This document shows positions 4,497 to 59,130 of a stretch of DNA of 64,000 nucleotides, piece after piece. Position 1 is the first letter of the stretch, and each line of letters begins with the position of its first letter. The notes beneath the pieces are model-generated. The model had not been told where the DNA came from. It did no database searches and worked only from the letters and a program-made list of their open reading frames with translations. This DNA comes from an uncultured virus (IMG/VR IMGVR_UViG_3300034116_001553) (Duplodnaviria; Heunggongvirae; Uroviricota; Caudoviricetes). The stretch lies in IMG/VR virus record IMGVR_UViG_3300034116_001553, one strand, 5' to 3'. The position numbers were made by a program, and so were the translations under genes.

Positions 4497-5339
4497 ATGA
4501 CACAAACAGCTAACCCACTAAAGCAGTACTTTAGACAACCGTCAATCTATATTAGATTGCCATCAAAAGGTAAATTCTGGAATAGTGAAGCAATTACTAT
4601 TCCGCCCAATCAGGAAATTCCCATTTACCCAATGACCGCAGTTGATGAAATTACTACCAGAACACCCGATGCTTTGTTCAACGGGTCTGCCATGGTTAAG
4701 ATTTTTGAAAGTTGTTGTCCAAACATTAAAGATGCATGGCAGGTCCCTAGTCTAGACGTTGATACGCTACTGGTGGCAATACGTATTGCCACTTACGGTC
4801 ACGGCATGGACATAGGTACCAAATGCCCCAGTTGTGGAAATGAAGATGAATATCAAATTGATCTTCGAGTAGTACTTGAAAATATTAATTCTCCTGACTA
4901 TGATGTGCCTGTCAAAGTTGGAGACTTAGAAGTGTATTTTAAACCAATGACCTATCAGGAATTAAATTCAAATAGTCAGATTCAATTTGAAGATCAAAAA
5001 CTAGTAGCAATGTTTCAGAATGCAGAAATACCCGAAGAAGAAAAACTGAAGCAGTTGGGCGAAGCATTTTTAAAAATTACCAGTCTTACAATTAGAAGCA
5101 TTGCTCAGAGCATTGGCGTAATTAAAACACCAGGTGCTCAGGTCAACGAACAAGAATTTATTGTTGAGTTTTTGAACAACTGTGAAAAATCTGCGTTTGG
5201 TGCAATACGTGACCGTGCAATTCAACTCAAACAAGAAGCTGAACTAAAACCAATTAAAATTAAATGTACCAATTGTGGTAATGAGTATGATCAAAACTTT
5301 ACATTGGATATGTCAAATTTTTTCGATTCCAACTCTTGA
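4497..5339 (+). CDS. Baseplate hub assembly protein, T4 gp26-like
   Basis: NPLKQYFRQPSIYIRLPSKG N-terminus, DVDTLLVAIRIATYG followed by CPSC, a second CTNC, and a C-terminal NFF. This is the gp26-family pattern. Confidence 0.75.
   Translation: MTQTANPLKQYFRQPSIYIRLPSKGKFWNSEAITIPPNQEIPIYPMTAVDEITTRTPDALFNGSAMVKIFESCCPNIKDAWQVPSLDVDTLLVAIRIATYGHGMDIGTKCPSCGNEDEYQIDLRVVLENINSPDYDVPVKVGDLEVYFKPMTYQELNSNSQIQFEDQKLVAMFQNAEIPEEEKLKQLGEAFLKITSLTIRSIAQSIGVIKTPGAQVNEQEFIVEFLNNCEKSAFGAIRDRAIQLKQEAELKPIKIKCTNCGNEYDQNFTLDMSNFFDSNS
5315..5324 (+). other. Candidate -1 ribosomal frameshift slippery site (A AAT TTT TTC)
   Basis: In-frame X XXY YYZ heptamers five codons before the gp26-like stop. The -1 frame is open from here into ORF 5336..5554. 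Confidence 0.4.
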
Positions 5340-5554
5340 GCCTGGACTCTGACCGCGTCATCAAGCTTGTTGACCGGATGGAAAAAGAGTGTGATCAAAT
5401 ACGTGAAGAGTCCATAAAGTTTGCCTGGTACATGCGCGGCGGCCTGTCCTACGAGGATGCCATGTCGTTGGCCCCAAACGAAAGAAAAATTATCAATAAT
5501 TTGATTAAAGATAATTTAGACACTACTAAAAAATCTGGATTACCTTTCTTCTAA
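5336..5554 (+). CDS. Small baseplate hub assembly protein, gp51-like (TTG start, or expressed by frameshift)
   Basis: 72 aa directly after the gp26-like gene. WYMRGGLSYEDAMSLAPNERKII resembles the small helical protein that follows gp26 in T4-like phages. Confidence 0.55.
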   Translation: MSLDSDRVIKLVDRMEKECDQIREESIKFAWYMRGGLSYEDAMSLAPNERKIINNLIKDNLDTTKKSGLPFF

Positions 5555-6060
5555 TGGAACTAGAACAAGTCAAACAAGATATAGAACTGTGGATTACAAA
5601 CTTCTTAGAAGTTCCACATCCTGCATTAGGGGGATTTTCTCCTTGTCCTTATGCACGGTCAGCACGAGTAAAGAACAGCTATGCAGTTTATCTTGGAGCC
5701 GATCCCTACTACGATCTTAAAAATTGTGGGCGTCAAGGCATGGGCAACCGAGAAGTTATTATCTATGTGTACGATCCAACAGAATGGTCACACGATATGC
5801 TTGCTGGTAGTATTGAATTGGTTAACAAGGAAGTACTGTTACCTAGAGACATGTTGGCACTAGAAGATCACCCAGATGATGTTGAAATGATCAATGGTGT
5901 GTGCATGAATCAAGGCACGTATGCATTAGCATTGGTACAAAGTCTAAGTGATTTAAACACCAAAGCCAAGCAAATGGCTGACAAAGGATTTTATCACTCT
6001 TGGCCTGAAGAATATCTACAAGCCCTGTTTCACCACAGACAGGATCCAAGGAAAACATAA
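5554..6060 (+). CDS. Hypothetical protein with PHPxLGGxxPCPYA motif (DUF1415/DUF6875-like)
   Basis: 168 aa, overlapping stop/start with both neighbours. WITNFLEVPHPALGGFSPCPYA and EDHP motifs; the family call is tentative. Confidence 0.5.
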   Translation: MELEQVKQDIELWITNFLEVPHPALGGFSPCPYARSARVKNSYAVYLGADPYYDLKNCGRQGMGNREVIIYVYDPTEWSHDMLAGSIELVNKEVLLPRDMLALEDHPDDVEMINGVCMNQGTYALALVQSLSDLNTKAKQMADKGFYHSWPEEYLQALFHHRQDPRKT

Positions 6061-7289
6061 TGTATAGTGTACATCAACCGTGGGATCCATTGCAAGTTTG
6101 TGTTGTGGGTAAAAGTTATCCTCCTGAGTTTTATAGCTTTATAAAAAATCCACGATTACGCAGTTTGTTTGAACGTATTGCTACTGAAACTGAAGAAGAC
6201 TTTGTGAATCTTGTGACATTACTTGAAAAGTTCAATGTAAAGACTGTAAGACCAAATGTACCCACAGTACAACTAGATCGGTTACTGACACAAAATCGTC
6301 GCATACCTGGCCCTGTTAGCATGATTCCAAGAGATCAGATGATTATGATTGGATCAGACTTTTTTGTGTTTCCTTACGACAACATCAGCATAAAATCATC
6401 AGGACGAAGTATCATGCCTCCTGGTAATTGGACTAAAAAAAATTACAACAACTTTAAAGGTCCTGATTGGCCACAAGAATTTACTCCATTTGATCAGCTG
6501 CCAGTTTGGATCCAAGAAGAATGTAAAAACTTGTTTCAGTTTGAGTTTAAACCTGGTGACAATTCTGATGAAATTATATCCAAGGCTAGTGAGTTCGACT
6601 GGTGGGAACCGGTTACTGGTCTTGTGAAGTCAGCTGGTAATCCTATCATTGAAAATCAATATCATGACATGTTAAATCAAATTCCAACTAATGGAATCAC
6701 CCGTATCGGAAAAGATTTATTTTTTGGGATATCTGAATCTGCCGATATCGACAAAATCAAAAAACTAACTGAACATTTTTTTCCAGACTTTAGAAATCAT
6801 ATTGTGACCACTGGTGGACATATCGACGGTTGTTTTACTCCTGTTAAGCCTGGTCTTATTGTGAGCATAGAAGATATGCCTACCTATGCAGATACATTTC
6901 CTGGATGGGAAGTTGTATACCTGAGCGGAGAAGGCTGGAACAAAGTGAAATCATTTTTGGACCTTAAAGAAAAAAATCAAGGGCGTTGGTGGATCAAGGG
7001 TAGTGAATACGATGACGAACTGATTGAATATGTAGAAACATGGTTGCAAGATTGGGTAGGGTATGTTGAGGAAAGTGTGTTTGATGTAAATATCCTTGTG
7101 ATCAATCAACAAAATGTCATTGTCAACAGCTACAATGAAAAAGCATTTGATGCTTTTAAACGTCACAACATAACTCCTCACATTTGCCCTTTGCGACACA
7201 GATACTTCTGGGACGGTGGTGTACATTGTGTTACCTTGGACCTGGACCGAAAAGGTATCCAGCAAGATTTTTTTCCGGATAGAACATGA
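6060..7289 (+). CDS. Amidinotransferase family protein (pentein fold), copy 1
   Basis: WDPLQVCVVG N-terminus, PRD, GHIDG and RHRYFWDGGVHCVT: the His/Asp/Cys catalytic motifs of glycine/inosamine-phosphate amidinotransferases. Confidence 0.85.
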   Translation: MYSVHQPWDPLQVCVVGKSYPPEFYSFIKNPRLRSLFERIATETEEDFVNLVTLLEKFNVKTVRPNVPTVQLDRLLTQNRRIPGPVSMIPRDQMIMIGSDFFVFPYDNISIKSSGRSIMPPGNWTKKNYNNFKGPDWPQEFTPFDQLPVWIQEECKNLFQFEFKPGDNSDEIISKASEFDWWEPVTGLVKSAGNPIIENQYHDMLNQIPTNGITRIGKDLFFGISESADIDKIKKLTEHFFPDFRNHIVTTGGHIDGCFTPVKPGLIVSIEDMPTYADTFPGWEVVYLSGEGWNKVKSFLDLKEKNQGRWWIKGSEYDDELIEYVETWLQDWVGYVEESVFDVNILVINQQNVIVNSYNEKAFDAFKRHNITPHICPLRHRYFWDGGVHCVTLDLDRKGIQQDFFPDRT

Positions 7290-7729
7290 CTTATCAATTT
7301 GCCAGAATTGACCTAGATAAAACCAATTACCTACCCACTGTTGGTTGGAATTACATCACTGATCGTGATGAAACCACACTCAACAAGCTAGATGAAATAT
7401 ACAAGTACTACTGTACCTACAAACATTTTTCATCAGTAATGCCTATATTTCACAGTCGCTATCAAGATCCAATGGCTGACATCATTGGCTACTACGACAA
7501 CGCTGAACTGGTTGCATTTAGCCTGATACGTAGATTTGACCAGTATAACGCACAATGCGACCAATTTGCTTGGACCTATCATCGACCCAAAATGCGACTA
7601 GGCATTGAAACAATGAAAACAGAATGTGCTATCTATAAACAGCGTGGTTTTAAATTTTTATACTTAGAGCAAGCACATTTATACAAACAAGATATTGATG
7701 GCTTTGAGATATTAGGTCCGTTGGTGTAA
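7286..7729 (+). CDS. GNAT-fold protein resembling the C-terminal domain of arginyl-tRNA--protein transferase (ATE/Bpt)
   Basis: GYYDNAELVAFSL...FAWTY..PKMRLG.ETMKTE..IYKQRGFKFLYL...HLYK aligns by eye with the ATE_C pattern (Y.dg.LVAv...yDP....SLG...l.eI..ar..g..y.YLG....YK). Confidence 0.55.
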   Translation: MTYQFARIDLDKTNYLPTVGWNYITDRDETTLNKLDEIYKYYCTYKHFSSVMPIFHSRYQDPMADIIGYYDNAELVAFSLIRRFDQYNAQCDQFAWTYHRPKMRLGIETMKTECAIYKQRGFKFLYLEQAHLYKQDIDGFEILGPLV

Positions 7730-8700
7730 TGTATCAGATTAACAGCGAATGGCATAGACTAAAAACCTGTGTGGTTGGCCGCAGTTGGAGTCCTGAGTTT
7801 TATAGTTGGATCAACAACGTTGAGATTCGAAATCATTTTGAAACAATTGCCAGTGAAACCGAAGAAGACCTACATACACTAGCAGTTAATCTGAATGCTC
7901 TTGGAGTACACACGCTTAGGCCAACAGCAGGTGTTGTTGATGTTGATGTTGACAATCTACCAAAGGCGCCGTTGGCAGCCAGGGATCATTTGTTAATGCT
8001 AGGAAATAAACTTGTTAAATCATTTTACAATAACATAGATCCGGATTTTTATAAAAACATTTCTGATCATGTGATTGCTCAGGGTAATCAAGAAATAGAA
8101 ATTAATCTACCATCAGTGTGTGGTGCCACTGTTTATCAATTTCTCGACTGTGTATTTTATTCTAATAATAAATCAGCTCATGAATTTTTACAAAATAGAG
8201 CCAGCAATAAAAAATTAACAGCTTTTCATCAGACTGGGCATATTGATGGATGGTTTTGTCCTGTTACACCAGGATTGATTATAGCCATAGACGATCCTGC
8301 AAATCACCAACTACTAAAACTATTTTTTAAAATGTATTTCTATGATTGGGAAATAGTTTATATCAAACCCAGTCTAGAAAAATTACCATCATTTAAGAAT
8401 TGGCAAGCAACACACACAGGATCTTGGTGGTTGCCAGGGCAAGAAAGTAATAATAAACTCACAGAGTTTATTGATTGTTACTTTAAGAATTTGTTGGGTT
8501 ATGTAGCAGAAACTGTTTTTGAATTAAACATGTTGATCATCGACAATAAAAATGTAGTGATCAGTGGCTACAATCAACAAATATTTGATGCACTCAAACG
8601 GCATCAAGTTACTCCGCATGTTTCACAGTTTAGACACAAGTGTTTTTGGGACAATGGTCTGCATTGTGTAACCAGCGATCTTCACAGAGAGGAAATATAA
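7729..8700 (+). CDS. Amidinotransferase family protein, copy 2
   Basis: Paralogue of 6060..7289: EWHRLKTCVVGRSWSPEFY, ARD, GHIDGWFCPV, RHKCFWDNGLHCVTSDL. Confidence 0.8.
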   Translation: MYQINSEWHRLKTCVVGRSWSPEFYSWINNVEIRNHFETIASETEEDLHTLAVNLNALGVHTLRPTAGVVDVDVDNLPKAPLAARDHLLMLGNKLVKSFYNNIDPDFYKNISDHVIAQGNQEIEINLPSVCGATVYQFLDCVFYSNNKSAHEFLQNRASNKKLTAFHQTGHIDGWFCPVTPGLIIAIDDPANHQLLKLFFKMYFYDWEIVYIKPSLEKLPSFKNWQATHTGSWWLPGQESNNKLTEFIDCYFKNLLGYVAETVFELNMLIIDNKNVVISGYNQQIFDALKRHQVTPHVSQFRHKCFWDNGLHCVTSDLHREEI

Positions 8701-8701
8701 A

Positions 8702-9037
8702 ATGGACTTATACACAATTTGGGCAAACAAAGAAGGCGATATCTCAGACTTAGACTGGGTCAACGGAATGAAAAGTTTCTTTGATCATTTGATCTCCGAA
8801 GACAAGATGGTATCGTACAGAATCACAAGATGTAAAATGGGATTCCGTAGTATTGCCGACATGCCAGAGTGGATGATACTCATGGAGTTTAGAGACATGG
8901 GTCAGATGGACAATGCGTTCAAACGAGTAGCACCACTCAAAGGAGAACTCGAAGAGAAACACAAGTCATTCAATCAGTTTGTTGCTGGTGATATTCAACA
9001 TGCATTGTTTAGAGATTGGCCAGATACTAACTTATAA
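8702..9037 (+). CDS. Small hypothetical protein (dimeric alpha-beta barrel / DUF6614-like)
   Basis: 111 aa. YTIWAN...SYRITRCKMGF...EWMILMEF; last gene of the plus-strand run. Confidence 0.5.
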   Translation: MDLYTIWANKEGDISDLDWVNGMKSFFDHLISEDKMVSYRITRCKMGFRSIADMPEWMILMEFRDMGQMDNAFKRVAPLKGELEEKHKSFNQFVAGDIQHALFRDWPDTNL

Positions 9038-9047
9038 CGGCTTTATG

Positions 9048-9120
9048 AGAACTTCGTTGAAGTTCTATTGATTTCGCTATCGCTCATCAATATTATTATA
9101 AACATCGAGCGAAGTGAGAT
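9048..9120. repeat. Cluster of three short inverted repeats, two with GAGCGnnnGnGA-type loops
   Basis: AGAACTTC-gtt-GAAGTTCT (9048-9066); TATTGAT-ttcgctatcgctc-ATCAATA (9066-9092); ATC-gagcgaagtga-GAT (9104-9120). They lie where two transcription units converge. Confidence 0.6.
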
Positions 9121-9124
9121 TACA

Positions 9125-9485
9125 GTTATTATCCAGATTCTTTGGTCACACTTTGCCCGCACAGGGCAAAGATTAAAAGCATTATCCGAGTTCGAATAGC
9201 CACATAGCGTTACAACATTACAGAGGCGGTTGTCCGGTACCTCGAGTTGCGTCTTTATACAACGGCAATCAATATAATATACGCTAACATACTATATTAA
9301 CCTGCAGAATCACTTCTGCGTCTTTTTAGCCTTTAAATTCTTTTCAAACAATCAAACCGCGGCAATTAGCGATCGTCATCCTTTCGGGTAGTGATTGAGT
9401 GCTTGCTAGAGCGGCAAGACTTCCGTCCCTGTGATCCGAGATCCAGGTCTAGGGCACACGAAATTGACCTGTGCGAGTCGTAACT
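9125..9485 (-). ncRNA. Candidate large structured non-coding RNA, family unknown
   Basis: Lies in the 456-bp gap lacking any ORF-track entry, in an otherwise gene-dense genome. At least 8 stems, a 13-bp stem whose three imperfections are G-U pairs on the minus strand, a CC-GAAA-GG tetraloop and possible loop-loop pairing. Ends are approximate. Confidence 0.6.
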
Positions 9486-9493
9486 GCTTAAAA

Positions 9494-10300
9494 TTAAATG
9501 TTTTTAGACCAAGTTGGGTCAAATTTATTAACTAGCTGCCGGTAAAATTTTAAATCTTCTGCTAAAAAAACGTACAACAATTCAAAAGTTTTTTGTTTTT
9601 TACGGATGTGTACATTTTTTAATGCCTGGTAAAGCTTTAGTTTTTTTGGGTTGGATTGATGTAATCGGGGGTCGTCAAGTGGTAGCTGTATATTGTAATT
9701 GTGTTTTTTAAACAAATGCATCATTGATTGTTTTACTTCGTTGTCAGACAAGTTGTCAGACGGAATCCAATGTATCTTATTGATAATACCTTGATATTCG
9801 ACGGTGTATGGCATTGTGTGTATATCAGTAATCAGTATGTCAGATGCTATGTTAAAAAATAGTTCTTGCTGTTCTAAATTGTCAAAATTATCAAATCTAA
9901 TTCTTTTCCAGAACCACTCAGTTAAGCCTTTGAGATATCGATCCGTTGGATTCATGATAGCAGTAAAAACAATGTGCTGATCAAAATTTACTTTGTCCAG
10001 GGTAATTTGTTCCCACCCTATACGAGTAAACAAATCATGATAGTAAATAAATCCGCATTTTGGCACAGGTATAAACACCAAAGAATGATGTCGGTACACC
10101 ACTACCCTGGACCGATGACTGGCAAGCCAGTAATCGGAATCTTCAATTTGATTCAGTGTTGATTCTAGTCCATGCTGTTGATAACATTCGTTTTTGATAC
10201 TATCGGGCAATTTTACAAAGTCACTGTAGGTTTCAATAAGTTGAGGCCAAGACAAATCTTTGACATTGTCATAAAACTTTTGTAAAAAAATTTCACTCAT
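9494..10300 (-). CDS. Sulfotransferase-fold-like protein with N-terminal YxxxKxxxWP...LPxxIxxEC module
   Basis: VFIPVPKCG and VFTAIMNPTDRYLKG resemble the degenerate 5'-PSB and 3'-PB motifs of Sulfotransfer_2 proteins. Confidence 0.45.
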   Translation of the reverse strand: MSEIFLQKFYDNVKDLSWPQLIETYSDFVKLPDSIKNECYQQHGLESTLNQIEDSDYWLASHRSRVVVYRHHSLVFIPVPKCGFIYYHDLFTRIGWEQITLDKVNFDQHIVFTAIMNPTDRYLKGLTEWFWKRIRFDNFDNLEQQELFFNIASDILITDIHTMPYTVEYQGIINKIHWIPSDNLSDNEVKQSMMHLFKKHNYNIQLPLDDPRLHQSNPKKLKLYQALKNVHIRKKQKTFELLYVFLAEDLKFYRQLVNKFDPTWSKNI

Positions 10301-10725
10301 AGTTTTCCTCTAATATGACTACCGTGTACTCTAACTTGTATATGGCCGTTGTAATAATCTTGCGATTCTAATACTCGTCTTGAAAATTGTTCTCTTGCTT
10401 CAATGTAACTGCATTCTGATTTGGAGTTGCAATAATAAAGTATTTCTCTGGTGAAGTTTTCGGTGCCTAGTTTGATTACGTCTGCGGTTAATTCTGGGCT
10501 TGACCCGTAGTACTCTCTCCAATCTGAATCAATCTTCGAGCGTATCTTCTTCCGCTTTTTTATGCCGTTTTTTTGTGTTACTGTTTTGTATGTGGTTTTT
10601 GAAAATTTTGCGAGTTTTTTGCCTATGTACTTGCGACCAGTGAGATTATTTGTAATCAAGTAAACAAATCCAACACACTCTTCGGGCAATGTCTCAACTG
10701 GGGTGTCTTGAAATAGCCATGTCAT
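10297..10725 (-). CDS. GIY-YIG nuclease-family protein (T4-like phage type)
   Basis: GFVYLITNNLTGRKYIGKK, YYGSS, FTREIL, YIEAREQ, YYN. Confidence 0.85.
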   Translation of the reverse strand: MTWLFQDTPVETLPEECVGFVYLITNNLTGRKYIGKKLAKFSKTTYKTVTQKNGIKKRKKIRSKIDSDWREYYGSSPELTADVIKLGTENFTREILYYCNSKSECSYIEAREQFSRRVLESQDYYNGHIQVRVHGSHIRGKL

Positions 10726-46679: not shown

Positions 46680-46988
46680 ATGAATAATGACAACTTGATT
46701 GCACACTCACGTGCCCGTTTTGAACATGCGGCCACAAAACGCATCCTTAAAGAAAAGTACCAGGGCAAAATGATATTTGCTTATAACGGAGGAATGTGGC
46801 AGGCAGGTCCTGAGTTATTGACATTGTTACATGCCTGCTCAGTGGACGATGATATTGTAATTTTAGATTTGTATGGTAATCCTGTAAAAATCAATCCAAC
46901 AGAATTACAATACTTGGCCCTTGGTCGCTGGCAGGAACAAATGAATGCATGGTTACTCGAGTATGAAGAATTAGGCAAAAAAAGATGA
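46680..46988 (+). CDS. Hypothetical protein
   Basis: 102 aa; first gene after the promoter, overlapping the next gene (ATGA). Confidence 0.65.
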   Translation: MNNDNLIAHSRARFEHAATKRILKEKYQGKMIFAYNGGMWQAGPELLTLLHACSVDDDIVILDLYGNPVKINPTELQYLALGRWQEQMNAWLLEYEELGKKR

Positions 46989-47791
46989 CAACTGGTGCGT
47001 TGATCTTTGCATTCAACAACAGCAACATTGATTATCTTGCCCTAGCGGCCTGGTCAGCTGATAATATAAAACGTCACCTGGGTATTCCGGTAGCAGTGGT
47101 CACCAACGTGTCCGATTCGGGTTATCTTAATAAGTTTGATCAAGTGATCACTGCATCAACTGATGCCGGCGGCTATCGTTTCTTTGATGACATTGGTAAG
47201 TCTGTACCGTGGTTTAATTCTAACAGAACCGATGCATATAGTCTAAGTCCCTGGGATAACACATTAGTGCTTGACGCCGATTATGTAGTAGCTAGTAATC
47301 AATTAAAATGTGCATTGAATACAACTCAAAATTTTTTATGTCATCGGTGGGCCTACGACCTCACAGGCACACAAGACTTTGAAGATTTAAATTATTTCGG
47401 TCGACATAAAATGCCCATGTGGTGGGCCACAGTGATGTATTTTAAACGCAGCCAAGAATCACAATTGCTATTTGAGTCAATGACAATGATTAAACAAAAT
47501 TGGCAACATTATAAAAATATCTACGGAACAGGTAGGTCTGTTTATCGTAACGACCATGCACTAAGTATTTCTCTTTGCATGTTAAATGGACACACAACGG
47601 ATCATCCAGCAATTCCCTGGAGTTTGGCCAGTGTAACACCTTCACATAAACTGTCACAAGTTAGTCAAGACTATTATAGAATTGATTTTAATAACAGTGA
47701 AGGAAAACCTCGTTGGGTGGATATTAAAAACTGTGACTTTCACGCCATGGGCAAACAACAACTAGGAGCCATCGTTGCCAATCCTTGCTGA
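46985..47791 (+). CDS. GT-A fold glycosyltransferase-like protein
   Basis: SPWDNTLVLDADY (DxD), WATVMYF, RNDHALS. Confidence 0.6.
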   Translation: MTTGALIFAFNNSNIDYLALAAWSADNIKRHLGIPVAVVTNVSDSGYLNKFDQVITASTDAGGYRFFDDIGKSVPWFNSNRTDAYSLSPWDNTLVLDADYVVASNQLKCALNTTQNFLCHRWAYDLTGTQDFEDLNYFGRHKMPMWWATVMYFKRSQESQLLFESMTMIKQNWQHYKNIYGTGRSVYRNDHALSISLCMLNGHTTDHPAIPWSLASVTPSHKLSQVSQDYYRIDFNNSEGKPRWVDIKNCDFHAMGKQQLGAIVANPC

Positions 47792-48554
47792 ACGTGGTTA
47801 TCTTATTCCGGCAATTGACACTGACTCTGTTGACTACTTGGGTTGTGCTGTACAACTTGCTAGATCTATTCGCCAGTGGCATCCAGATGCCAATATCTCT
47901 GTACTGTCAGTAAAACAATGCAGTGACCCTGTGTTCGATCATGTGATTCCGTTGCCACACGGTGACCTAGGAGGATATGCCAACGACTGGCAAGTATTTG
48001 CCGCTAGTCCTTATAGACAAACTATTAAACTAGAAGCAGACATGATTGCCACAAGTGCTGTGGACCACTGGTGGACATTGTTTGAACACCAAGATGTGGC
48101 AATCAGTCAAGGCTGTAGAGATTTTTACGGACAGATAAGTAAGTCAAGATATTACAGAAAAGTTTTTGATTCTAACAACTTGCCTGATGTTTACAATGCT
48201 ATAACTTACTGGCGTGTGAGTAAAACAGCCAAGGAATTTTTTGATTTAGTAAGGGCAATATTTTCTGACTGGGAGTCCTTTAAAAAATTATTAAAATTCC
48301 CCGACGATATCCCTACAACTGATTTAGTATATGCCATGGCTGCCAAAATAGTCGGCATTGAGAATTGTGTATTACCAACAAATTTTGGTCCTACAATTGT
48401 TCATATGAAGCGTTATATTATACCCACACATACCGGCAATTGGAGCAAAGAACTAGTCTGGGAAAATGCAGACCCTGGATTAAGGATACACACAATTACA
48501 CAAAGTGGATTCTTTCATTATCATATAAAAGATTGGGCCACAGCCAATGAATGA
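47775..48554 (+). CDS. GT-A fold glycosyltransferase-like protein (paralogue of previous)
   Basis: SPYRQTIKLEADM (ExD variant), YNAITYW, TDLVYA, HYH. Confidence 0.55.
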   Translation: MPILAERGYLIPAIDTDSVDYLGCAVQLARSIRQWHPDANISVLSVKQCSDPVFDHVIPLPHGDLGGYANDWQVFAASPYRQTIKLEADMIATSAVDHWWTLFEHQDVAISQGCRDFYGQISKSRYYRKVFDSNNLPDVYNAITYWRVSKTAKEFFDLVRAIFSDWESFKKLLKFPDDIPTTDLVYAMAAKIVGIENCVLPTNFGPTIVHMKRYIIPTHTGNWSKELVWENADPGLRIHTITQSGFFHYHIKDWATANE

Positions 48555-48894
48555 AACTACAGAAAATTTTTGGAAAGCATTCAACGAATGGGATCTACCG
48601 ACACCAAAACCAATATTTTATCGTTTATATCATGATGATGCAGGCTTTCCTTTATTTTATAGCATGGAGGATGTGCCAGGTAATTATATTGAAATCGACA
48701 GAGAAACATTTTCCTTGTTGCCAAGTAATGTTCGAGTAGTCGACAATAAATTAATCTATATAAAACACACTATCACTAATAAATTGGTGCCAGGAGACAC
48801 AGGAATACCCTGTGATCCTAGGGATATCTGTGTTGTTGTAGATAATTCTATACCTAATATAAAATGGAGTTTAAGAACTAATGAAACAAGTTGA
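48547..48894 (+). CDS. Hypothetical protein
   Basis: 115 aa, overlapping both neighbours in the operon. Confidence 0.6.
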   Translation: MNETTENFWKAFNEWDLPTPKPIFYRLYHDDAGFPLFYSMEDVPGNYIEIDRETFSLLPSNVRVVDNKLIYIKHTITNKLVPGDTGIPCDPRDICVVVDNSIPNIKWSLRTNETS

Positions 48895-49807
48895 TATTGC
48901 TGATCTTGATGTGATTTACCTCAGCTATGATGAACCACAGAAAGAAGAATTCTGGGTCAAGATTAAAAACATGGTTCCCTGGGCCAAACGTGTGGATGGT
49001 GTTAAAGGCTCAGATGCCGCACACAAAGCCGCTGGTGATGTCAGCGAAACAGAACGATTTATTTTAATCGACGGCGACAATTTGCCAGATTCGAAATTTT
49101 TTAATCTAACATTAGATTTTAAAGATGATGATAAACACAATTCAGTGTTTCGTTGGAGAGCACGTAATCATATCAACGGATTAATGTATGGTAATGGAGG
49201 ATTAAGTTCTTGGACTCGAGAGTTTGTGTGGAATATGAAAACTCATGAAAACACAGATGGACGAGATGAAAGTCTTGTTGAGTTTTGTTTTGAGCCTAAT
49301 TACTTTGCCATGTATGATTGTTACAGTACTACCTATCCAAACGGAACACCGTTCCAGGCCTGGCGAGCAGGATTTAGAGAAGGTGTCAAGATGTGCCTAG
49401 ACAAAGGTCATAAACCATCAGTGGCTGAATTTAGAGATCGTGTGCATAAACGTAATTTTGATCATCTTACAATTTGGCATAATGTAGGAACTGATGCTGA
49501 AAACGGTGCCTGGGCCATTGCCGGCAGCAGAATGGGCACTTACATGACCATGCTAACCGACTGGGATTATCGGCTAGTTCAAAATTTTGATGCGTTAGCA
49601 ACTTTGTGGGATACTGTCAAAGATCACACTCCAGAAATCGTGTTTGATAGAATTGCTGCCGATCTAAATCAACAACTGGATTTACCTGTCATTGTGTTGG
49701 GTCGAGAAGAAAGTGAATTTTTTAAACATCATTATCTGAGCAACTGGCACAACCGAGGTATAATGACACGCGAACTAGATGTAATAAGGGAACAAGAAGG
49801 ATGGTAA
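48881..49807 (+). CDS. Glycosyltransferase family 2-like protein
   Basis: DVIYLSYDEP, AHKAA, FILIDGDN (DxD), YGNGG, AWRAGFREGVK. Confidence 0.6.
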   Translation: MKQVDIADLDVIYLSYDEPQKEEFWVKIKNMVPWAKRVDGVKGSDAAHKAAGDVSETERFILIDGDNLPDSKFFNLTLDFKDDDKHNSVFRWRARNHINGLMYGNGGLSSWTREFVWNMKTHENTDGRDESLVEFCFEPNYFAMYDCYSTTYPNGTPFQAWRAGFREGVKMCLDKGHKPSVAEFRDRVHKRNFDHLTIWHNVGTDAENGAWAIAGSRMGTYMTMLTDWDYRLVQNFDALATLWDTVKDHTPEIVFDRIAADLNQQLDLPVIVLGREESEFFKHHYLSNWHNRGIMTRELDVIREQEGW

Positions 49808-50373
49808 CACGATTATACCTTGACGGATGTAGTTTGACCTACGGGCAAGGTCTTAAAAGACAAGATTCTTTAGGAAGCCTATTTAATACTCGCGGCGGGT
49901 ATCAAGTAATTGACAACTCAAGGCAAGGTAAAAGTAATATGTCTATTGCATTTGATGCTTATCAAAATTTTCAAAATGCCGATATATTTGTATTAGGTTT
50001 TACATATTCGTCTAGATTTGGATTAAAATATAACGATCAGAATTTAGATTTTTTTACAGGGTTTCACGGTAAAGGACTGGCTCTTGAGCCAGCAACACTT
50101 GATATTGCACACACTGAGATGTACAAATATTTTTATTCTGTTTTTGGTCCTCCGTATAGTGAAAATTTAAGTGACATGTTAATCGACACATCAATTAGTT
50201 TTTTAAATTCTTGTAACAAAAAAGTTCTTGGATTTTCCTGGGAAAACAGAAAAACGGTTCGCCAGTTAGAATATCCCATGATTGGTCCAAATGGTCGACT
50301 TGATGACGGACATCTAAATGTTAAAGGTACCGAGCAACTTTTTGATTTTTTACAAAATATTTTAAATGAATAA
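49801..50373 (+). CDS. SGNH/GDSL hydrolase-like protein
   Basis: Block I DGCSLTYG, block II GKSN, block V DDGHLN. Confidence 0.65.
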   Translation: MVTRLYLDGCSLTYGQGLKRQDSLGSLFNTRGGYQVIDNSRQGKSNMSIAFDAYQNFQNADIFVLGFTYSSRFGLKYNDQNLDFFTGFHGKGLALEPATLDIAHTEMYKYFYSVFGPPYSENLSDMLIDTSISFLNSCNKKVLGFSWENRKTVRQLEYPMIGPNGRLDDGHLNVKGTEQLFDFLQNILNE

Positions 50374-51781
50374 TAAAGTTGACACAAAATTAACAGACTT
50401 TAAATCTGAATTTTTAAGTTCTGCAGAAGATATGAAAACTGTGCTAGGACCTAGCTTGTGTTTGGCCAAGTGGAAACAAGTTAGCCTTCATCTGCCCACC
50501 GGAATGAACAACAGTTGTTATCATCCACCATTGCATAGAATACCCATAGAAGAAATTGGACATAATCCTGGAGCATTACACAATACTCCATATAAAAAAG
50601 AACAGCGTAAAATGATGCTCAACGGCGAGCGACCTTCGGAGTGTAGTTATTGCTGGACCATGGAGGATCTAGGAAAACTAAGTGATAGACACTATCGTAG
50701 CGGTGAACCTTGGGCCGCAATGGATTTTGAACAAATAAAAAACTCAACAGGCAATGAAGATGTTGTGCCTAGTTATGTCGAAGTTAATTTTAATCACGCT
50801 TGTAATCTATCTTGTAGCTATTGCAGTCCACAATTTAGTAGCACCTGGCAAGCAGAAGTACAACGCTCAGGCGGATATCCTACTAGTATTATCCATAATG
50901 ATCCTAGCCACTTCACTGGCCGCAATCGACCTATACCAGCTAGTCACGAGAACCCTTATGTGGAAGCGTTCTGGAAGTGGTGGCCTACATTATATCCTAA
51001 ACTAAAACATTTTCGCATGACTGGTGGCGAGCCTCTAATGGATAAAAATACCTACAAGGTATTTGACTATGTGCTAGCACTACCCAACCCTGAGTTGCAT
51101 TTAAATGTTACCAGTAACTTTAGCGTAGAACCGCAGTTATGGAACAAGTATTTTGATTATGTTAAACAGTTATGTAACACCAACATTGAACATTTTATGC
51201 AGTATGTTAGTTTGGATTCAGGCATACCAGAGCATGCTGAATACATTCGCCATGGCATGGATTTTTATCGTGTGCAAAGCCGTGTAAATCATTTCTTGTT
51301 GGACATTCCTAATCGTAATAGTTTGACATTTATTATTACCATGAACAATCTAAGTGTGTTAGGGTTAAAAACACAATTGGAATGGATATTAGAATTACGA
51401 AAACAACATAGCCATACCTATCAGCGTGTTTGGTTTGATACGCCTCTTCTTAGACAACCAACCTGGCAAAGTCTACAAATACTTCCACCAGCCTATGCAA
51501 GCATACTTGAACGAATTGCTGATTGGATGGAAATTAATTTAGAAACCCCTAGCAACCCATTTCACGGATTTAAAGACTACGAAGTACAACGCCTGCGCAG
51601 AGATATTGCCTGGATGAAAGATGGACAGAAGTTGCAACAAGGTTACGTTAATAAAAATCGTGCTGATTTTTATAGATTTTTTAACGAACACGACTCTCGA
51701 CGAGGAACAGATTTTTTAAAAACATTTCCTGAAATGTCAGATTGGTGGAAAGAATGTGAGTACCATGCTAGACAAACGTAA
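50366..51781 (+). CDS. Radical SAM enzyme with N-terminal Cys-rich auxiliary (SPASM/twitch-like) domain, copy 1
   Basis: CLAKW...SCYH...ECSYCW, then CNLSCSYC and TGGEP. Confidence 0.88.
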   Translation: MNNKVDTKLTDFKSEFLSSAEDMKTVLGPSLCLAKWKQVSLHLPTGMNNSCYHPPLHRIPIEEIGHNPGALHNTPYKKEQRKMMLNGERPSECSYCWTMEDLGKLSDRHYRSGEPWAAMDFEQIKNSTGNEDVVPSYVEVNFNHACNLSCSYCSPQFSSTWQAEVQRSGGYPTSIIHNDPSHFTGRNRPIPASHENPYVEAFWKWWPTLYPKLKHFRMTGGEPLMDKNTYKVFDYVLALPNPELHLNVTSNFSVEPQLWNKYFDYVKQLCNTNIEHFMQYVSLDSGIPEHAEYIRHGMDFYRVQSRVNHFLLDIPNRNSLTFIITMNNLSVLGLKTQLEWILELRKQHSHTYQRVWFDTPLLRQPTWQSLQILPPAYASILERIADWMEINLETPSNPFHGFKDYEVQRLRRDIAWMKDGQKLQQGYVNKNRADFYRFFNEHDSRRGTDFLKTFPEMSDWWKECEYHARQT

Positions 51782-52907
51782 ACTTATTCTAGATACATTT
51801 TGCGAAGTCTACGATCAACTACTACCCTGGGAAGATGAGTCTTTTTATGATTTTAGTAATCACACTATTGTTCCGGGTGCAATTTATATTATAGGTCGAA
51901 CACAATTTAATTTGAATAAAGAGAGAATTCGTGAGTTAGTTGAATCTGACACTATACGTGTTGTATTAAGCAATCCAGCTGAAGGTAGCGAAACGTTAAA
52001 AGCACATTGTGAGAGTGTGCATAACATTGCCGATCTTGTTGTGCAAGGGCGTATTTTATTAATCGGTGGCGGAGACATGGAGCCAGACTGGCCGTGTTTA
52101 GTCTATGATAGTTTCTTGCCCAAGATACATGACTATAAACAAAATCTAATAGAGATTAATCGGTCAGAGGCCTTGTACTCCACGCCCAACAAGCCTTTTA
52201 AATTTTTGTTTTTAAATGGCCGCTTGAGAGGACATAGAAAATTCCTAATAGAAAAACTTGATTTAATGGGACTGTTAGATCAAAGTCTGTGGACTAGTCT
52301 TGAATCAAGAAAAAGTATGTACTCAAATTTATCTGTGCCATTTAATGGGCAGGATCAGATGTTTACTTTGAGAGAACCACACCTGTTGCCATCCAAATAC
52401 GAAGTTGATCGTTATTGTAACAACATTGATCTAGTGCCCAAATTAGGCTTTATTAAACACAATCTGTTTGATCAAGAATGGGGAGAAATCTATCTCAAAG
52501 CAGAACCTTATATTGATACATATTTTAGTCTAGTTTCCGAAACAGTATGTGACTATCCGTATAGTTTTAGAACTGAAAAAATTTGGAAACCTGTGGCTAT
52601 TGGACACCCGTGGATAGCGGCAGCCAATCGAGGATACTATCGAGACATGCGCAATCTAGGATTTCAAACATTTTCACATGTGATTGATGAAAGTTTTGAT
52701 GAAATTGACAATACGCAGGATAGACTCACACGTATTACACAAATAGTTGAAGATTTGTGTAAGCAAGATCTTGATGAATTCCTCAAATCGTGTTATAATG
52801 TATGTAAATACAATCAACAACATCTGCTTGAAATGCGCCAAACTGTGCGTAAAGAATTTCCTAGACGATTCCTGCAATTTATTAAACAAAGTCACTTCGA
52901 TGAATGA
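51765..52907 (+). CDS. Hypothetical protein, possibly GT-B/fucosyltransferase-like C-terminus
   Basis: FLFLNGR.R.HR and FSLVSET...RTEKIWKP...GFQTF..VIDESFD. The TEK motif recalls GT10 enzymes. Start set at the ATG at 51765. Confidence 0.45.
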   Translation: MLDKRKLILDTFCEVYDQLLPWEDESFYDFSNHTIVPGAIYIIGRTQFNLNKERIRELVESDTIRVVLSNPAEGSETLKAHCESVHNIADLVVQGRILLIGGGDMEPDWPCLVYDSFLPKIHDYKQNLIEINRSEALYSTPNKPFKFLFLNGRLRGHRKFLIEKLDLMGLLDQSLWTSLESRKSMYSNLSVPFNGQDQMFTLREPHLLPSKYEVDRYCNNIDLVPKLGFIKHNLFDQEWGEIYLKAEPYIDTYFSLVSETVCDYPYSFRTEKIWKPVAIGHPWIAAANRGYYRDMRNLGFQTFSHVIDESFDEIDNTQDRLTRITQIVEDLCKQDLDEFLKSCYNVCKYNQQHLLEMRQTVRKEFPRRFLQFIKQSHFDE

Positions 52908-54231
52908 TTTAGAATTCCGACAACAAATATTAGATACCAAAAGTTCTAGTTTCTGTGCGGCCAAATGGTACAATGCTACTATATGGCTAGGATCAGGCCA
53001 AACAACTAGCTGTCATCATCCACCGGCACACGCTATTGATGTAGATGATATTAAACGCAACCCATCAGCGTTACATAACACACAGAGAAAAAAAGCCGAT
53101 AGAGAAATGATGCAGAAAGGTGAGCGTCCTAGCGGTTGTGAATACTGCTGGAAAATTGAAGACATTGGCCGAGATGCAATCAGTGACCGTGTATACAAAA
53201 GTAAAATTTACCCTATAGAGGACTTAAATCATGCTTTCCGCACTCCGGCCAGCAATGACATCAATCTTCGAACACTAGAGATTGCGTTTGATCGCACTTG
53301 CCAGTTTGCTTGTAGCTACTGTAATCCTGCTTTTAGTAGTACATGGGTTAAAGATATACGAAACAACGGCGCTTACCAGGGCTTGGTTAGCGATGGCAGG
53401 AATCATTTTACTCATGATCACGCTGCCTCCCAACTTTACAAGTTTGGAGAACAAAATCCTTATGTGGACGCATTCTTTGCTTGGTGGGAAAGCGACCTCC
53501 ACCAAACTCTTCAGGAGCTCAGAATAACCGGTGGTGAGCCATTGATGTCAGGTGAGACCTGGAAACTGATTGACTGGTTTAAAAACAATCCCGGGCGTAG
53601 CCACACACAATTGGCAATTAATTCAAATTTAGGTGCTGAAGTAGACATAGATCGTTTACTAGACAGTATTAAAGGCTTGCAAGTAGAAATATACACAAGC
53701 ATGGAAGCAGTGGGTACACAAGCAGAATACATTCGAGACGGTCTAGACTATCAAGCGTGGTGTGCTAATGTGCTGAAACTATTGGATGCTGGTATAGTGG
53801 TACATTGTATGTGTACTATTAATGCTTTGTGCCTGGATAGCCTTCCTAAACATTTAGACCAACTGATTGAATGGAAAAAAATCTACGGTCGTGACTATAT
53901 TAATTTTACACTGAATATCCTGCGATTCCCCAGTTTCCAAAGTGCATTGGTACTCGGTGAATCTTTAAGAAATCAATACAAACAAGATTTAATTGACTGG
54001 ATGGGTAAACACAAAGGTCACAGCTATTTGCACGAACACGAAATTAATCACACTCAGCGATTAATTGATTATCTAGACGTGGTAAAAACTCCGCACTCGG
54101 ATGCGTTTGACATGCCTAAATTGCTGAATGATTTTTACAAGTTTCATGCACAATATGATCAGCGCCGCGGTAAAGATTTTGCTCAGGCATTTCCTAATCT
54201 TAAAGAATGGTATGACTCAATACAAGTATAA
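52900..54231 (+). CDS. Radical SAM enzyme with N-terminal auxiliary domain, copy 2
   Basis: FCAAKW...SCHH...GCEYCW, CQFACSYC, TGGEP; likely start ATG 52900 (MNDLEF). Confidence 0.88.
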   Translation: MNDLEFRQQILDTKSSSFCAAKWYNATIWLGSGQTTSCHHPPAHAIDVDDIKRNPSALHNTQRKKADREMMQKGERPSGCEYCWKIEDIGRDAISDRVYKSKIYPIEDLNHAFRTPASNDINLRTLEIAFDRTCQFACSYCNPAFSSTWVKDIRNNGAYQGLVSDGRNHFTHDHAASQLYKFGEQNPYVDAFFAWWESDLHQTLQELRITGGEPLMSGETWKLIDWFKNNPGRSHTQLAINSNLGAEVDIDRLLDSIKGLQVEIYTSMEAVGTQAEYIRDGLDYQAWCANVLKLLDAGIVVHCMCTINALCLDSLPKHLDQLIEWKKIYGRDYINFTLNILRFPSFQSALVLGESLRNQYKQDLIDWMGKHKGHSYLHEHEINHTQRLIDYLDVVKTPHSDAFDMPKLLNDFYKFHAQYDQRRGKDFAQAFPNLKEWYDSIQV

Positions 54232-55477
54232 CAGTACAGACCTAGTGCGTTCTACAGAACTCACCGAGCGTGAGCGTTTTCTATTAGAAGATTCTAAAAC
54301 GTTCTGCATCTATCCCTGGATACATTTACACGCTTATCCCACCGGAGAAGCATATCCTTGCTGTCATGCTGAAATGAAGCCCGGTGTTGTGGGTAATTGT
54401 CGCACAAACACACTAGAAGAAATATGGCGCGACAAACCCATGCAGAAACTACGTGCAGACATGTTGAGCGAAACTCCACACGCCGCCTGCACACGCTGTT
54501 ATGAACAAGAAGAATCTGGATTCTTTAGTGGCCGCAAAAGCGCCAACAAGCATCACGGACATCAGATAAAGAAACTGGAAGAAAATCCCTTTGAAATGAC
54601 TTACTGGGACATTCGCTTTAGTAATTTGTGCAACTTAAAGTGCAGATCATGTGGACACATCTTTAGTTCACAGTGGTATCAAGACCAGGCCAAACTGGCC
54701 GGCGGTGATTGGAAAGATCGTAATAAAGTACTCAACTATGCCGGCCGCACCGAAACAGACATGTGGCAACAACTAGAGCCACACCTGGACTATGTGGAGC
54801 AGATTTACTTTGCTGGCGGCGAACCCTTGCTGATGGAAGAGCACTATAACATTCTTGACGAACTGGTCAAACGTGGCCGCTTTGATGTTAGACTGATATA
54901 CAACACCAACTTCACGCACACAGACCTTAAAGGTAATAGCGTATTTGAGTACTGGAAACAATTTAATTCGGTTGCAGTTGGCGCAAGTTTAGATGCAATG
55001 GGACCACGTGCGGAATACATACGCAAAGGCACTGATTGGGCAGTGGTAGAACAAAATCGCAGAGACATGATTGAAATCTGTCCAGGCGTGGATTTTTATA
55101 TCAGTCCTACATTAAGTATTATGAATGCCATGCATTTAACACAATTCCATCGTGCATGGGTACAACAAGGCCTACTAAAACCACAGGATCTTAATGTAAA
55201 CATTTTACAAGATCCTGTGCATTATAGAATTGATATTGCTCCTGCTAACTACAAAGAGAGACTCACAGCACAGTATTATGATCATATCGAATGGTTGACA
55301 CAAGTAGGAGATCCGTTGGGTCGTGCCACACAAGGTTTTAAAAGTGCAATCACCTTTATGAATGCCACGGATAACACACAGTTAATAGATCAATTTTGGC
55401 GTAAGACGCATGATCTGGACGGTATTAGAAACGAAAACATCTTGGATATCATCCCAGAATTAACGGCATTAAAATGA
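54212..55477 (+). CDS. Radical SAM enzyme with N-terminal twitch/SPASM-like domain, copy 3
   Basis: FCIYPW...GEAYPCC...ACTRCY, CNLKCRSC, AGGEP; likely start ATG 54212. Confidence 0.88.
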   Translation: MTQYKYNSTDLVRSTELTERERFLLEDSKTFCIYPWIHLHAYPTGEAYPCCHAEMKPGVVGNCRTNTLEEIWRDKPMQKLRADMLSETPHAACTRCYEQEESGFFSGRKSANKHHGHQIKKLEENPFEMTYWDIRFSNLCNLKCRSCGHIFSSQWYQDQAKLAGGDWKDRNKVLNYAGRTETDMWQQLEPHLDYVEQIYFAGGEPLLMEEHYNILDELVKRGRFDVRLIYNTNFTHTDLKGNSVFEYWKQFNSVAVGASLDAMGPRAEYIRKGTDWAVVEQNRRDMIEICPGVDFYISPTLSIMNAMHLTQFHRAWVQQGLLKPQDLNVNILQDPVHYRIDIAPANYKERLTAQYYDHIEWLTQVGDPLGRATQGFKSAITFMNATDNTQLIDQFWRKTHDLDGIRNENILDIIPELTALK

Positions 55478-56679
55478 AATTACCACAGGATAAATTTTGT
55501 GTACTGCCTTGGATCAGTTTAGAAGCTAGTCCCATCGGGACTGTACGTCCTTGCTGTCTTGCCGAAGATGAAATAATTGACAATGATGGCAATAAATTTG
55601 AATTGACCAAAGCCGACTTCGTTGAAATAAGAAATTCAGATTACATGAAAAATCTTAGACAGCAATTCCTGACAGGACAAAAACCTAATACCTGTAAGAA
55701 GTGTTGGAACGAAGAAGATTCAGGTAGAACAAGTAAACGAATGCACACTATTGATCGATTAAAACATATTGTTGGCAATCAGTCCTGGAGTGAAGATGAA
55801 AAACCAATGATGTTCTTGGATTTAAAACTAGGAAATATCTGTAATCTTAAATGCCGTATATGTGGTTCGTGGTCATCAAGTTCGTATGCAACAGAAGAAA
55901 TGATGGCTGTACCACACCAAGATCGTAAAAAAACATTTGCCTATCAGATGCTACGTGCTGGTAGTTGGCCAAGAGAAAATAAACAATTTTGGCAACAAAT
56001 TGATCAATGCCTATCTGACATACACTATATAGAATTCACCGGTGGCGAACCTTTTATGATCAGCGAACATTTTGATATGTTACAAGGAATTATAGACAGA
56101 GGAATTGCTGGACAAGTAGAGATACATTACAATACAAACGGAACCATAGTTCCTGAACGTGCGCCTGACATTTGGCGACACTTTAAAACAGTTGAAGTTG
56201 CATTTAGCATAGATGACGTAGGACCAAGATTTGAATACCAACGCATGAATGCTAGTTGGAAAGAAGTAAACGAAAACATTAACAAGTTTAAATTGTTACA
56301 ATCTACAATGCCTAACCTACAGTTACAATGTTGTAGTACTGTTAATGTTTTTAATGTGCTGTATCTTGAAGAGCTTGCGGCCTGGCACAAGTTGGCTAGT
56401 TTTGATTTTATCTATTGGAATATGTTGCACGAAGCATATTATTTTAGCATAGGATCATTGCCTGAACTGTCAAAACAATATGTCAAACAAAAATTGGAAA
56501 GTACAGCAACTCTAGGTAATACAAAACAGGAGTTTGAAAAAATTATTCAATTTATGATGCAAGGAACAAGTCTTGATGGTTCTTTACTACGTGAAAAAAT
56601 TAAAGAAATAGATCTACGAAGAAGCCAAGATTTAAATCAACATCATTCAGAGTTGGCTAAAACAATTGCTTATGAATAA
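55474..56679 (+). CDS. Radical SAM enzyme with N-terminal twitch/SPASM-like domain, copy 4
   Basis: FCVLPW...GTVRPCC...TCKKCW, CNLKCRIC, TGGEP. Confidence 0.88.
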   Translation: MKLPQDKFCVLPWISLEASPIGTVRPCCLAEDEIIDNDGNKFELTKADFVEIRNSDYMKNLRQQFLTGQKPNTCKKCWNEEDSGRTSKRMHTIDRLKHIVGNQSWSEDEKPMMFLDLKLGNICNLKCRICGSWSSSSYATEEMMAVPHQDRKKTFAYQMLRAGSWPRENKQFWQQIDQCLSDIHYIEFTGGEPFMISEHFDMLQGIIDRGIAGQVEIHYNTNGTIVPERAPDIWRHFKTVEVAFSIDDVGPRFEYQRMNASWKEVNENINKFKLLQSTMPNLQLQCCSTVNVFNVLYLEELAAWHKLASFDFIYWNMLHEAYYFSIGSLPELSKQYVKQKLESTATLGNTKQEFEKIIQFMMQGTSLDGSLLREKIKEIDLRRSQDLNQHHSELAKTIAYE

Positions 56680-59027: not shown

Positions 59028-59028
59028 T

Positions 59029-59130
59029 ATGAACTGGTTAAAAAACTTAATCAATAGAATTAAACTTGAAATAAGATATAGAAAAAAACTCAAAGAGTTA
59101 CGTAAACGAGATCCATTTATCTACAAATGA
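59029..59130 (+). CDS. 33-aa basic peptide upstream of carbamoyltransferase (absent from ORF track)
   Basis: MNWLKNLINRIKLEIRYRKKLKELRKRDPFIYK; begins 1 nt after the previous stop and overlaps the next ATG (ATGA). Confidence 0.7.
   Translation: MNWLKNLINRIKLEIRYRKKLKELRKRDPFIYK

Follow-up and report, generated by a model that had tools for sequence, protein, structure and literature searches.

A CPY-motif protein (CPY), a stand-alone ATE_C domain and a DUF6614 protein form a conserved unit in viral genomes, and the module to which they belong looks like undescribed viral chemistry. Among 87 de-replicated viral loci, CPY adjoined ATE_C in 85 and DUF6614 was present in 73, so the genes do co-occur in relatives, and their linkage survived unrelated gene contexts and altered gene orders. 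The emphasis moves away from the two amidinotransferase-like genes (penteins A and B) that the initial annotation had highlighted. The interpretation that we favor, while giving it slightly less than an even chance, is tRNA-dependent arginylation coupled with haem oxidation, akin to that of argolaphos AglC/AglA, which would decorate a phage-made product, with the penteins as optional parts.

The window (the whole stretch of 64,000 nucleotides that was analyzed) comes from a large uncultured lake phage, in which a packed operon lies directly behind the tail-baseplate genes:

4497..5339, + strand: baseplate hub protein (PF12322, 62.4 bits; T4_baseplate, E 6e-17; phrog_150)
5336..5554, + strand: conserved 72-aa ORF with a TTG start, kept in relatives
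5554..6060, + strand: CPY, 168 aa, core; probable member of the DUF6875 (P422)/DUF1415/YqcI-YcgG fold group
6060..7289, + strand: pentein A, 409 aa, accessory; AGAT-like, non-canonical
7286..7729, + strand: stand-alone ATE_C domain, 147 aa, core; aminoacyl-tRNA transferase-like
7729..8700, + strand: pentein B, 323 aa, accessory; of the non-canonical family of pentein A, separate lineage
8702..9037, + strand: DUF6614 protein, 111 aa, core (PF20319, 74.8 bits against a cut-off of 25)

The five genes from CPY to DUF6614 had been described as tightly coupled and as continuing from the baseplate hub. All five ORFs were found in place and translationally coupled, with junctions that overlap by 1–4 bases or leave a 1-base gap, and only the 72-aa ORF separates them from the hub gene. 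The hub gene, a context gene that shares the locus with the ATE_C gene in 65/87 loci, heads the operon within this clade of phages. The 72-aa ORF had no match in Pfam, PHROG or NCBIfam and is probably a baseplate-linked context gene. Contigs from 3/3 DNA runs spanned the operon sequence with few or no differences, excluding an assembly artefact. One metatranscriptome run shared a small proportion of words and its contigs missed the genes at 5554–8700; it has no bearing on expression.

Judged by its sequence relationships, the 147-aa product is a genuine ATE_C domain, a cut-down relative of ATE1, in agreement with its first description as ATE_C-like rather than an ordinary GNAT. The protein alone had no Pfam match, and 25 of 35 relatives matched PF04377 at E ≤ 0.01, some above the family cut-off; Atlas clusters annotate ATE_C at 0.98–0.99. 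The family profile matched KlAte1/ScAte1 at E 9e-9 to 3e-8 (KlAte1, 9e-9), in an alignment covering Lys304, Glu277 and Ser273, which are essential in KlAte1 (PMC9351520). Lys134 aligned with catalytic Lys304 and Glu113 with arginine-pocket Glu277, each being kept in 63/68 rows, and only 1–2 of 4 pocket residues were identical to those of Ate1 (Cys for Ser255, Thr for Ser273 and Leu for Tyr289). The phage protein thus shares with ATE1/Bpt (PF04376 plus PF04377) the ATE_C GNAT domain and the catalytic Lys, and its donor-pocket Glu is of the Ate1 type, whereas Bpt carries Gln. Unlike ATE1/Bpt, it is a single domain without the ATE_N acceptor domain, the zinc finger and the Arg80 pocket that reads acidic N-termini. 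Relatives of 225–270 aa carry an N-extension only, which is Cys-less, and no second match was found in the phage's own record. The basic helix with which ATE1 grips the tRNA acceptor stem (PMC10115844) appears reduced to a three-residue turn at 10–12 in the phage model, and phage ATE_C is slightly acidic (median net charge −2).

The predicted fold of ATE_C matched L-PGS (Z 14.5), FemX (Z 14.1) and MprF (Z 13.9); the acyl-CoA GNAT VipF (Z 14.4) tied with L-PGS and topped the Foldseek matches, and ATE1 reached Z 10.9. The only BFVD matches were generic GNATs and phage relatives that are themselves uncharacterised. In these models, fold alone cannot separate tRNA-dependent from acyl-CoA-dependent GNATs, and the protein might be an ordinary acyl-CoA GNAT placed in a loose group of cargo or anti-defence genes that share no pathway. 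The equal scores of acyl-CoA tandem GNATs and tRNA transferases would fit such a grouping, as would the free insertion of penteins and other cargo at the operon and a phage anti-Druantia ORF that is predicted to be DUF6614-like in a preprint (bioRxiv 2024.04.14.589459). We consider this unlikely, since the sequence links lead to ATE_C/ATE1 and not to acetyltransferase families, and the three-gene linkage persists across unrelated contexts. Acyl-CoA GNATs have a Gly-rich pyrophosphate loop in motif A; it was not seen after strand 88–96 of the phage protein, where loop 98–106 has one Gly and the length of the ATE1 loop.

CPY had been noted as part of the module and left without a function, though it is the key partner. 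Profile and model comparisons indicate that CPY is probably a Cys-ligated (thiolate) haem oxygenase. It matched DUF6875 (hhalign Prob 94.9, E 4e-8) and DUF1415 (Prob 91.5) in a profile match that spans 133 columns and aligns the Cys-Pro, and scored 16.5 bits with the DUF6875 Pfam model, below the 24.5 cut-off. The YqcI/YcgG profile matches were weak (Prob 33 and 8), and Trp-oxidising P422 and the uncharacterised DUF1415 family are nearer to CPY than YqcI/YcgG is. P422 proteins are thiolate haem enzymes (bioRxiv 2025.12.11.692455); Cys31 of CPY aligns with the axial Cys of their CP motif and is kept in 42/42 close rows. The CPY model (pLDDT 87.6), with four strands sandwiched by helices, fits the strand/helix order of the sandwich topology described for P422. 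Its best structural match (VIA) was AglA (9ub3; Z 6.5, rmsd 3.8, 142 aligned), the only match with Z above 5, a score that falls within the range of chance best matches. Foldseek of the CPY model against the PDB returned nothing at E ≤ 0.001, and at the sequence level CPY, DUF6614 and close ATE profiles had chance matches only in that database. Unlike P422, CPY has the Trp-binding motifs replaced: the clamp MxGxF reads LxLED, at which Asp105-His106 (invariant in 29/29 rows) sit, and the SBR1 Arg/Asp read Gln129/Asn135. The HBR Arg (RxGxVCP) is likewise replaced, and the propionate-binding Arg is missing. The operon carries no reductase gene. CPY relatives without ATE_C occur in cyanophages. 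A complex prediction for CPY plus ATE_C scored 0.00 with controls that were not folded, and weighs neither way.

DUF6614, which the initial annotation took for a small alpha-beta barrel and which is placed here by its Pfam family match only, is the most conserved gene of the operon, with a median identity of 89% over 67 related copies, compared to 71% for gp46 and 52% for the hub. R43, K45, G47, F48, H87, H100 and D105 are invariant, and Pfam gives no clan hint. The HMM searches proposed at the outset placed this protein well over its family cut-off and matched CPY to the DUF6875 and DUF1415 profiles. DUF6614 stands alone in bacteria: at 7 clear bacterial loci (401 genomes sampled) no CPY, ATE_C or pentein was seen by eye within 1.5 kb. 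DUF6614-seeded scans of genome contigs yielded 5 loci; each came from a metagenome bin and was either phage-like or short.

ATE1/Bpt are the closest characterised relatives of the phage transferase by sequence, and the module could serve viral N-degron tagging. ATE_C would then place Arg, or some other residue, on the N-termini of proteins, perhaps once CPY has oxidised the N-terminal residue, and phage ClpS-ClpA-ClpP would degrade the tagged host or phage proteins. In a fuller copy of the phage (G021) there are genes for ClpS, for ClpX, for two ClpP and for an ATPase of the ClpA type. ClpS was present in 4/4 near-complete records and 9/25 overall, counted among module-bearing records only, with the near-complete ones probably kin. 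In some clades a peptide deformylase gene is found close to the module. This route also seems unlikely to us: the ATE_N pocket for acidic N-termini is gone, the ClpS gene is not linked to the operon, and the penteins and DUF6614 are left unexplained. ClpS, moreover, reads large hydrophobic residues rather than Arg, a specificity that misfits Arg tagging.

Both penteins, as first described, keep GHIDG and the C-terminal HC. Pentein A matched AGAT/HsvA/StrB1 at E 3e-10 and pentein B at E 4e-4, and the family profile matched AGAT-type amidinotransferases at E 4e-17; the nearest solved relatives are all amidinotransferases, with no deiminase. Pentein A keeps Cys390, His254, Asp92 and Asp256. Equivalents of Cys407, His303 and Asp170/Asp305 of AGAT, the last two of which we take to be the guanidinium-binding residues, are kept in 38/38 family rows (row L132, a false member of the alignment and tree, was left out of the counts). 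The AGAT-type catalytic triad includes Asp254, His303 and Cys407 (PMC3684758), and the aligned Asp254 column holds Asp in 0/38 rows (Asn 15, Trp 7, Ser 5, Cys 5, Pro 4, Val 1 and Gln 1), with Pro in pentein A and Cys in pentein B. As this residue is missing, the penteins are putative rather than established transamidinating enzymes. Unlike AGAT, StrB1, HsvA and SxtG, the family has its own RHRxFWD and EETxFD motifs and several paralogues per phage, and a canonical pentein with the triad Asp is encoded elsewhere in the same phage. A pentein of the module's family was detected in a virion preparation of cyanophage S-SCSM2R (PMC12801897).

Penteins adjoined the core in 32/87 loci and were not adjoining in 55/87. 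Outside the hub-linked clade, where the contexts of the operon are not all structural genes, a pentein adjoined in 19/22 loci, and 19/27 records had one somewhere. These frequencies, together with the kept Cys, His and Asp residues and the solved relatives, would suit true amidinotransferases acting in an obligatory path with ATE_C to install aminoacyl and guanidino groups. Such a path is hardly probable, as 52/65 hub-linked loci had no adjoining pentein and the triad Asp is absent from 38/38 family rows. Two flanking copies, present here, were found in only 2/87 loci, from different lineages, so that flanking by design was rejected. The pathway first proposed was of this kind: the ATE_C identity on which it drew stands, as do the co-occurrence of the genes and the AGAT-type sequence family of the penteins, but the penteins are its variable part and lack a triad residue.

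Very unlikely is an action of ATE_C on tRNA itself, deacylating or sequestering Arg-tRNA to retune translation with its neighbors acting separately. ATE_C has lost its acceptor domain but retains the catalytic Lys and the donor pocket, and G021 carries 28 tRNAs (three Arg) and a tmRNA; against this, the CPY adjacency maintained through rearrangements would be unexplained and the basic surface of ATE_C appears weak.

In the favored arginylation and haem-oxidation reading, the operon would be a phage tailoring module, in which (i) ATE_C, with the Lys and Glu residues seen, would take an aminoacyl group, most likely Arg, from charged tRNA and form an amide on an acceptor; (ii) the acceptor, a small amine, an amino-sugar or a protein site, would be presented by other means, because ATE_C cannot select it alone once the N-domain is gone; (iii) CPY, a putative thiolate-haem oxygenase whose pocket is acidic and whose reductases would come from the host, would oxidise the guanidinium or a neighboring amine; (iv) DUF6614 would be a fixed helper; and (v) the penteins, extras that can stand in for one another and belong to an expanded phage family, may bind the guanidinium and attach, transfer or trim an amidino group. 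The most likely site of the resulting decoration would be a part of the virion or a surface polymer that the phage makes; the phage has many genes of the sugar-nucleotide, glycosyltransferase, aminotransferase and carbamoyltransferase kinds.

The parallel for step (iii) is AglA acting on the AglC product. In the argolaphos pathway of Streptomyces monomycini, AglC is an Arg-tRNA-dependent ligase that requires ArgRS and tRNA to form AMPn-Arg, which AglA, a Cys-ligated haem guanidine N-hydroxylase, then hydroxylates (PMC12866846). AglA is the best structural match of CPY. Unlike that system as described, the phage has no phosphonate genes, and DUF6614 and the penteins have no counterpart in it. 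The phage transferase is ATE_C-derived and is likened to AglC by the reaction described rather than by sequence; CPY is nearer DUF6875/DUF1415, while AglA belongs to YqcI/YcgG.

None of the papers listed by literature searches for the module described it, in line with the earlier statement that no characterised phage pathway of this composition was known. Clusters with a relationship to ATE_C numbered 2976 and those with one to CPY 2763, and ATE_C had no match among 50,697 GenBank phage records.

A broader formulation, possible though doubtful, is a virus-encoded, ribosome-independent path in which a minimal ATE1-derived domain would draw Arg from charged tRNA and a new thiolate-haem class would oxidise what it makes. 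N-hydroxy-arginyl or related guanidino groups would thereby be placed on virion proteins, on a phage glycan or on proteins of the host, which might then enter the phage's ClpS-ClpAP route, and an expanded family of penteins with an altered triad would vary the decoration. Such a path would be carried by thousands of uncultured aquatic phages, with no cultured model among those searched. If active, the module would show a virus putting aminoacyl-tRNA to a use other than translation, and its ATE_C would be a pared-down ATE1 catalytic unit with which the role of the N-domain could be addressed. CPY would then bring a fourth class of substrate to the recently described thiolate-haem fold, and the penteins would be a family that functions in the absence of the canonical triad. 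The four proteins are small and amenable to in vitro work, and the module is common by its cluster counts, yet its ATE_C has no match in the GenBank phage collection.

The window belongs to a 175-kb virus record from lake metagenomes, which a 342-kb record (G021, a fuller copy of the same phage) contains at 100%. Genes in the window include those for a probable tape measure protein, the baseplate hub and gp46/gp47-like proteins, together with numerous genes of the radical SAM, carbamoyltransferase, AMP-binding and halogenase-like types. The five coupled ORFs of the initial annotation are present immediately after the hub gene and a 72-aa ORF, joined by 1–4-base overlaps or a one-base gap, and the region was recovered in independent DNA runs. 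The gene module is real:

5554–6060, plus strand, 168-aa CPY-motif protein (CPY)
6060–7289, plus strand, pentein A
7286–7729, plus strand, 147-aa stand-alone ATE_C protein
7729–8700, plus strand, pentein B
8702–9037, plus strand, DUF6614 protein

Two viral-contig scans yielded 160 loci (the best 80 of 295 and the best 80 of at least 594), which clustered at 95% nucleotide identity into 120 groups; 33 with <2 kb of flank were removed and 87 were counted. CPY lay ≤2.6 kb from ATE_C in 85/87 of these de-replicated viral loci, and DUF6614 in 73/87. At least one pentein was near ATE_C in 32/87 loci (13/65 hub-linked, 19/22 in other contexts), two were near it in 3/87, and both flanks were occupied in 2/87, the window phage and locus L025. 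Outside the hub-linked clade the module follows a major capsid gene or has genes for gp46, peptide deformylase or MazG as neighbours, with altered gene order and orientation. These counts and varied contexts establish that the conserved unit is CPY plus ATE_C (with DUF6614), a pentein being a frequent partner; the flanking by two amidinotransferases, central to the initial annotation, is local. DUF6614 has a median identity of 89% across relatives, higher than gp46; in the sampled bacteria it occurs on its own. Where the module or DUF6614 turns up in bacterial metagenome bins (L081, L082, L083, L084 and L165), the contigs look like mis-binned phage sequence. That the genes are unrelated cargo is unlikely. 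A long cargo run occupies 46985–63338 (five radical SAM-type genes, a carbamoyltransferase, an AMP-binding enzyme, a tryptophan halogenase-like gene and several ORFs without assignment).

No description of the module, or of a characterised phage pathway of such composition, was found in the literature searched, as initially proposed, and supplementary annotations of such genes could exist. Phage amidinotransferases on their own are already noted in print; no ATE_C match was found among GenBank phages.

Two conserved elements lie downstream of the module:

9346–9479 (within 9090–9490), minus strand, Polynucleobacter-1 RNA (Rfam, 120 bits)
10297–10725, minus strand, SegE-like GIY-YIG gene (median identity 82% across 56 relatives)

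The RNA sits downstream of the GIY-YIG gene, to which it is linked. Conservation extends ∼270 nt 3′ of the Rfam match in some 29–37 of 165 loci, and RNAalifold on 21 sequences gave 51 pairs outside the region matched by Rfam, of which 24 show double changes (a raw count, without shuffle control). The RNA may be ∼400 nt, exceeding the Rfam model. The GIY-YIG gene is more conserved than gp46, which is unusual for a homing endonuclease.

Searched singly, the 147-aa protein had no Pfam match. Its model (pLDDT 94.5) is a GNAT resembling the second domain of tandem enzymes; because L-PGS (Z 14.5), VipF (14.4), FemX (14.1), MprF (13.9) and ATE1 (10.9) all matched, the fold is insufficient to decide its identity. 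Sequence, unlike fold, marks it as an ATE_C/Ate1 relative, bearing out the first assignment: the sole PDB match of the family profile is Ate1 (E 9e-9), and 25/35 relatives match ATE_C, with Atlas in agreement. Aligned to Ate1 (equivalences after subtracting a four-residue tag), Lys134 corresponds to Lys304, Glu113 to Glu277, Thr109 to Ser273, Cys91 to Ser255 and Leu125 to Tyr289; Glu113 and Lys134 are each kept in 63/68 family rows. Ate1 K304A is reported as inactive and Glu277 as required for Arg, Bpt having Gln there (excerpts of PMC9351520). Unlike ATE1, the phage protein has no ATE_N, and the basic helix with which ATE1 is described as binding tRNA (excerpts of PMC10115844) is reduced; this speaks against its being simply a copy of ATE1. 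In a family of 225–270-aa ATE-like proteins (P0284, P0307, P0321–P0383) the N-domain lacks Cys, and both this Glu and this Lys are retained in 28/28 rows. N-degron tagging by the module would fit the ClpS, ClpA-type, ClpP and ClpX proteins encoded in G021; we consider it improbable. The G021 quality-control set (L204–L221) comprises ClpS, a ClpA-type ATPase, ClpX, two ClpP, GroES/GroEL and DnaJ, and G021 also has tmRNA and 28 tRNAs, three for Arg, one of these with anticodon TCG.

The closest solved relatives of both penteins are AGAT, HsvA, StrB1 and SxtG, and the Cys, His and two Asps are kept in 38/38 family rows. The amidinotransferase kinship proposed initially thus stands; the activity is in doubt, as 0/38 rows have an acid where AGAT has Asp254, the last member of its triad according to excerpts of PMC3684758. 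G021 also encodes, at another site and next to a UDP-glucose dehydrogenase-like gene, a canonical pentein that has this Asp; the window pair thus represent a distinct family of uncertain chemistry. Obligatory transamidination by the penteins is quite unlikely. In the tree the two fall into separate lineages, neither grouping with the L025 penteins (deep branches are unresolved). The family is expanded, with matches in 19/27 records and six members in G021; four additional penteins of the same phage lie at G000:C1:1688–2749 (its own record, just past the window end) and G021 41552, 335640 and 339613. A family member was detected in the virion proteome of cyanophage S-SCSM2R, with carry-over possible per its authors (excerpts of PMC12801897). 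The pentein A insert segment (6400–6560), a short D-x-S/D-W-P type segment, is common to the N-terminus of a 268-aa ORF (9494–10300, minus strand) and recurs in other cargo genes, giving false pentein matches.

The CPY model (pLDDT 87.6) has four strands between helices, and AglA is its single VIA match above Z 5 (Z 6.5, 142 aligned), a middling score. Profile comparison is firmer: DUF6875 gave Prob 94.9 (133 columns) and DUF1415 91.5, against a weak 7.8 (33 in another comparison) for YqcI/YcgG and <1 for three unrelated controls. The alignments used were small, with 7, 9 and 21 rows; five DUF6875 and two weak DUF1415-like rows made up the first. DUF6875 proteins are described as thiolate-haem Trp oxygenases named P422 (excerpts of bioRxiv 10.64898/2025.12.11.692455; PMC13307353). 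Cys31 of CPY aligns with the P422 ligand Cys; two rows apparently without it are mis-started gene calls. Unlike in P422, the Trp clamp is replaced and Asp105-His106 is invariant, which suggests a cationic substrate. CPY relatives without ATE_C occur in cultured phages S-PM2 (L235, two genes upstream of baseplate gp25) and CRP-810 (L237, adjoining a 2OG oxygenase).

The best known analogue is AglC/AglA, the argolaphos pair, in which Arg is moved from tRNA onto an amine, followed by haem N-hydroxylation (excerpts of PMC12866846; see also excerpts of PMC8976061 and PMC2922099). Deacylation of tRNA by ATE_C is very unlikely. The genes, their linkage, family links and residues are observed; all activities, the step order and the substrate are inferred. 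On the AglC/AglA model, ATE_C would transfer Arg from charged tRNA to an acceptor, and CPY would then carry out haem oxidation. We tentatively propose, at somewhat short of an even chance, that the module serves tRNA-dependent arginylation and haem oxidation of a phage product.
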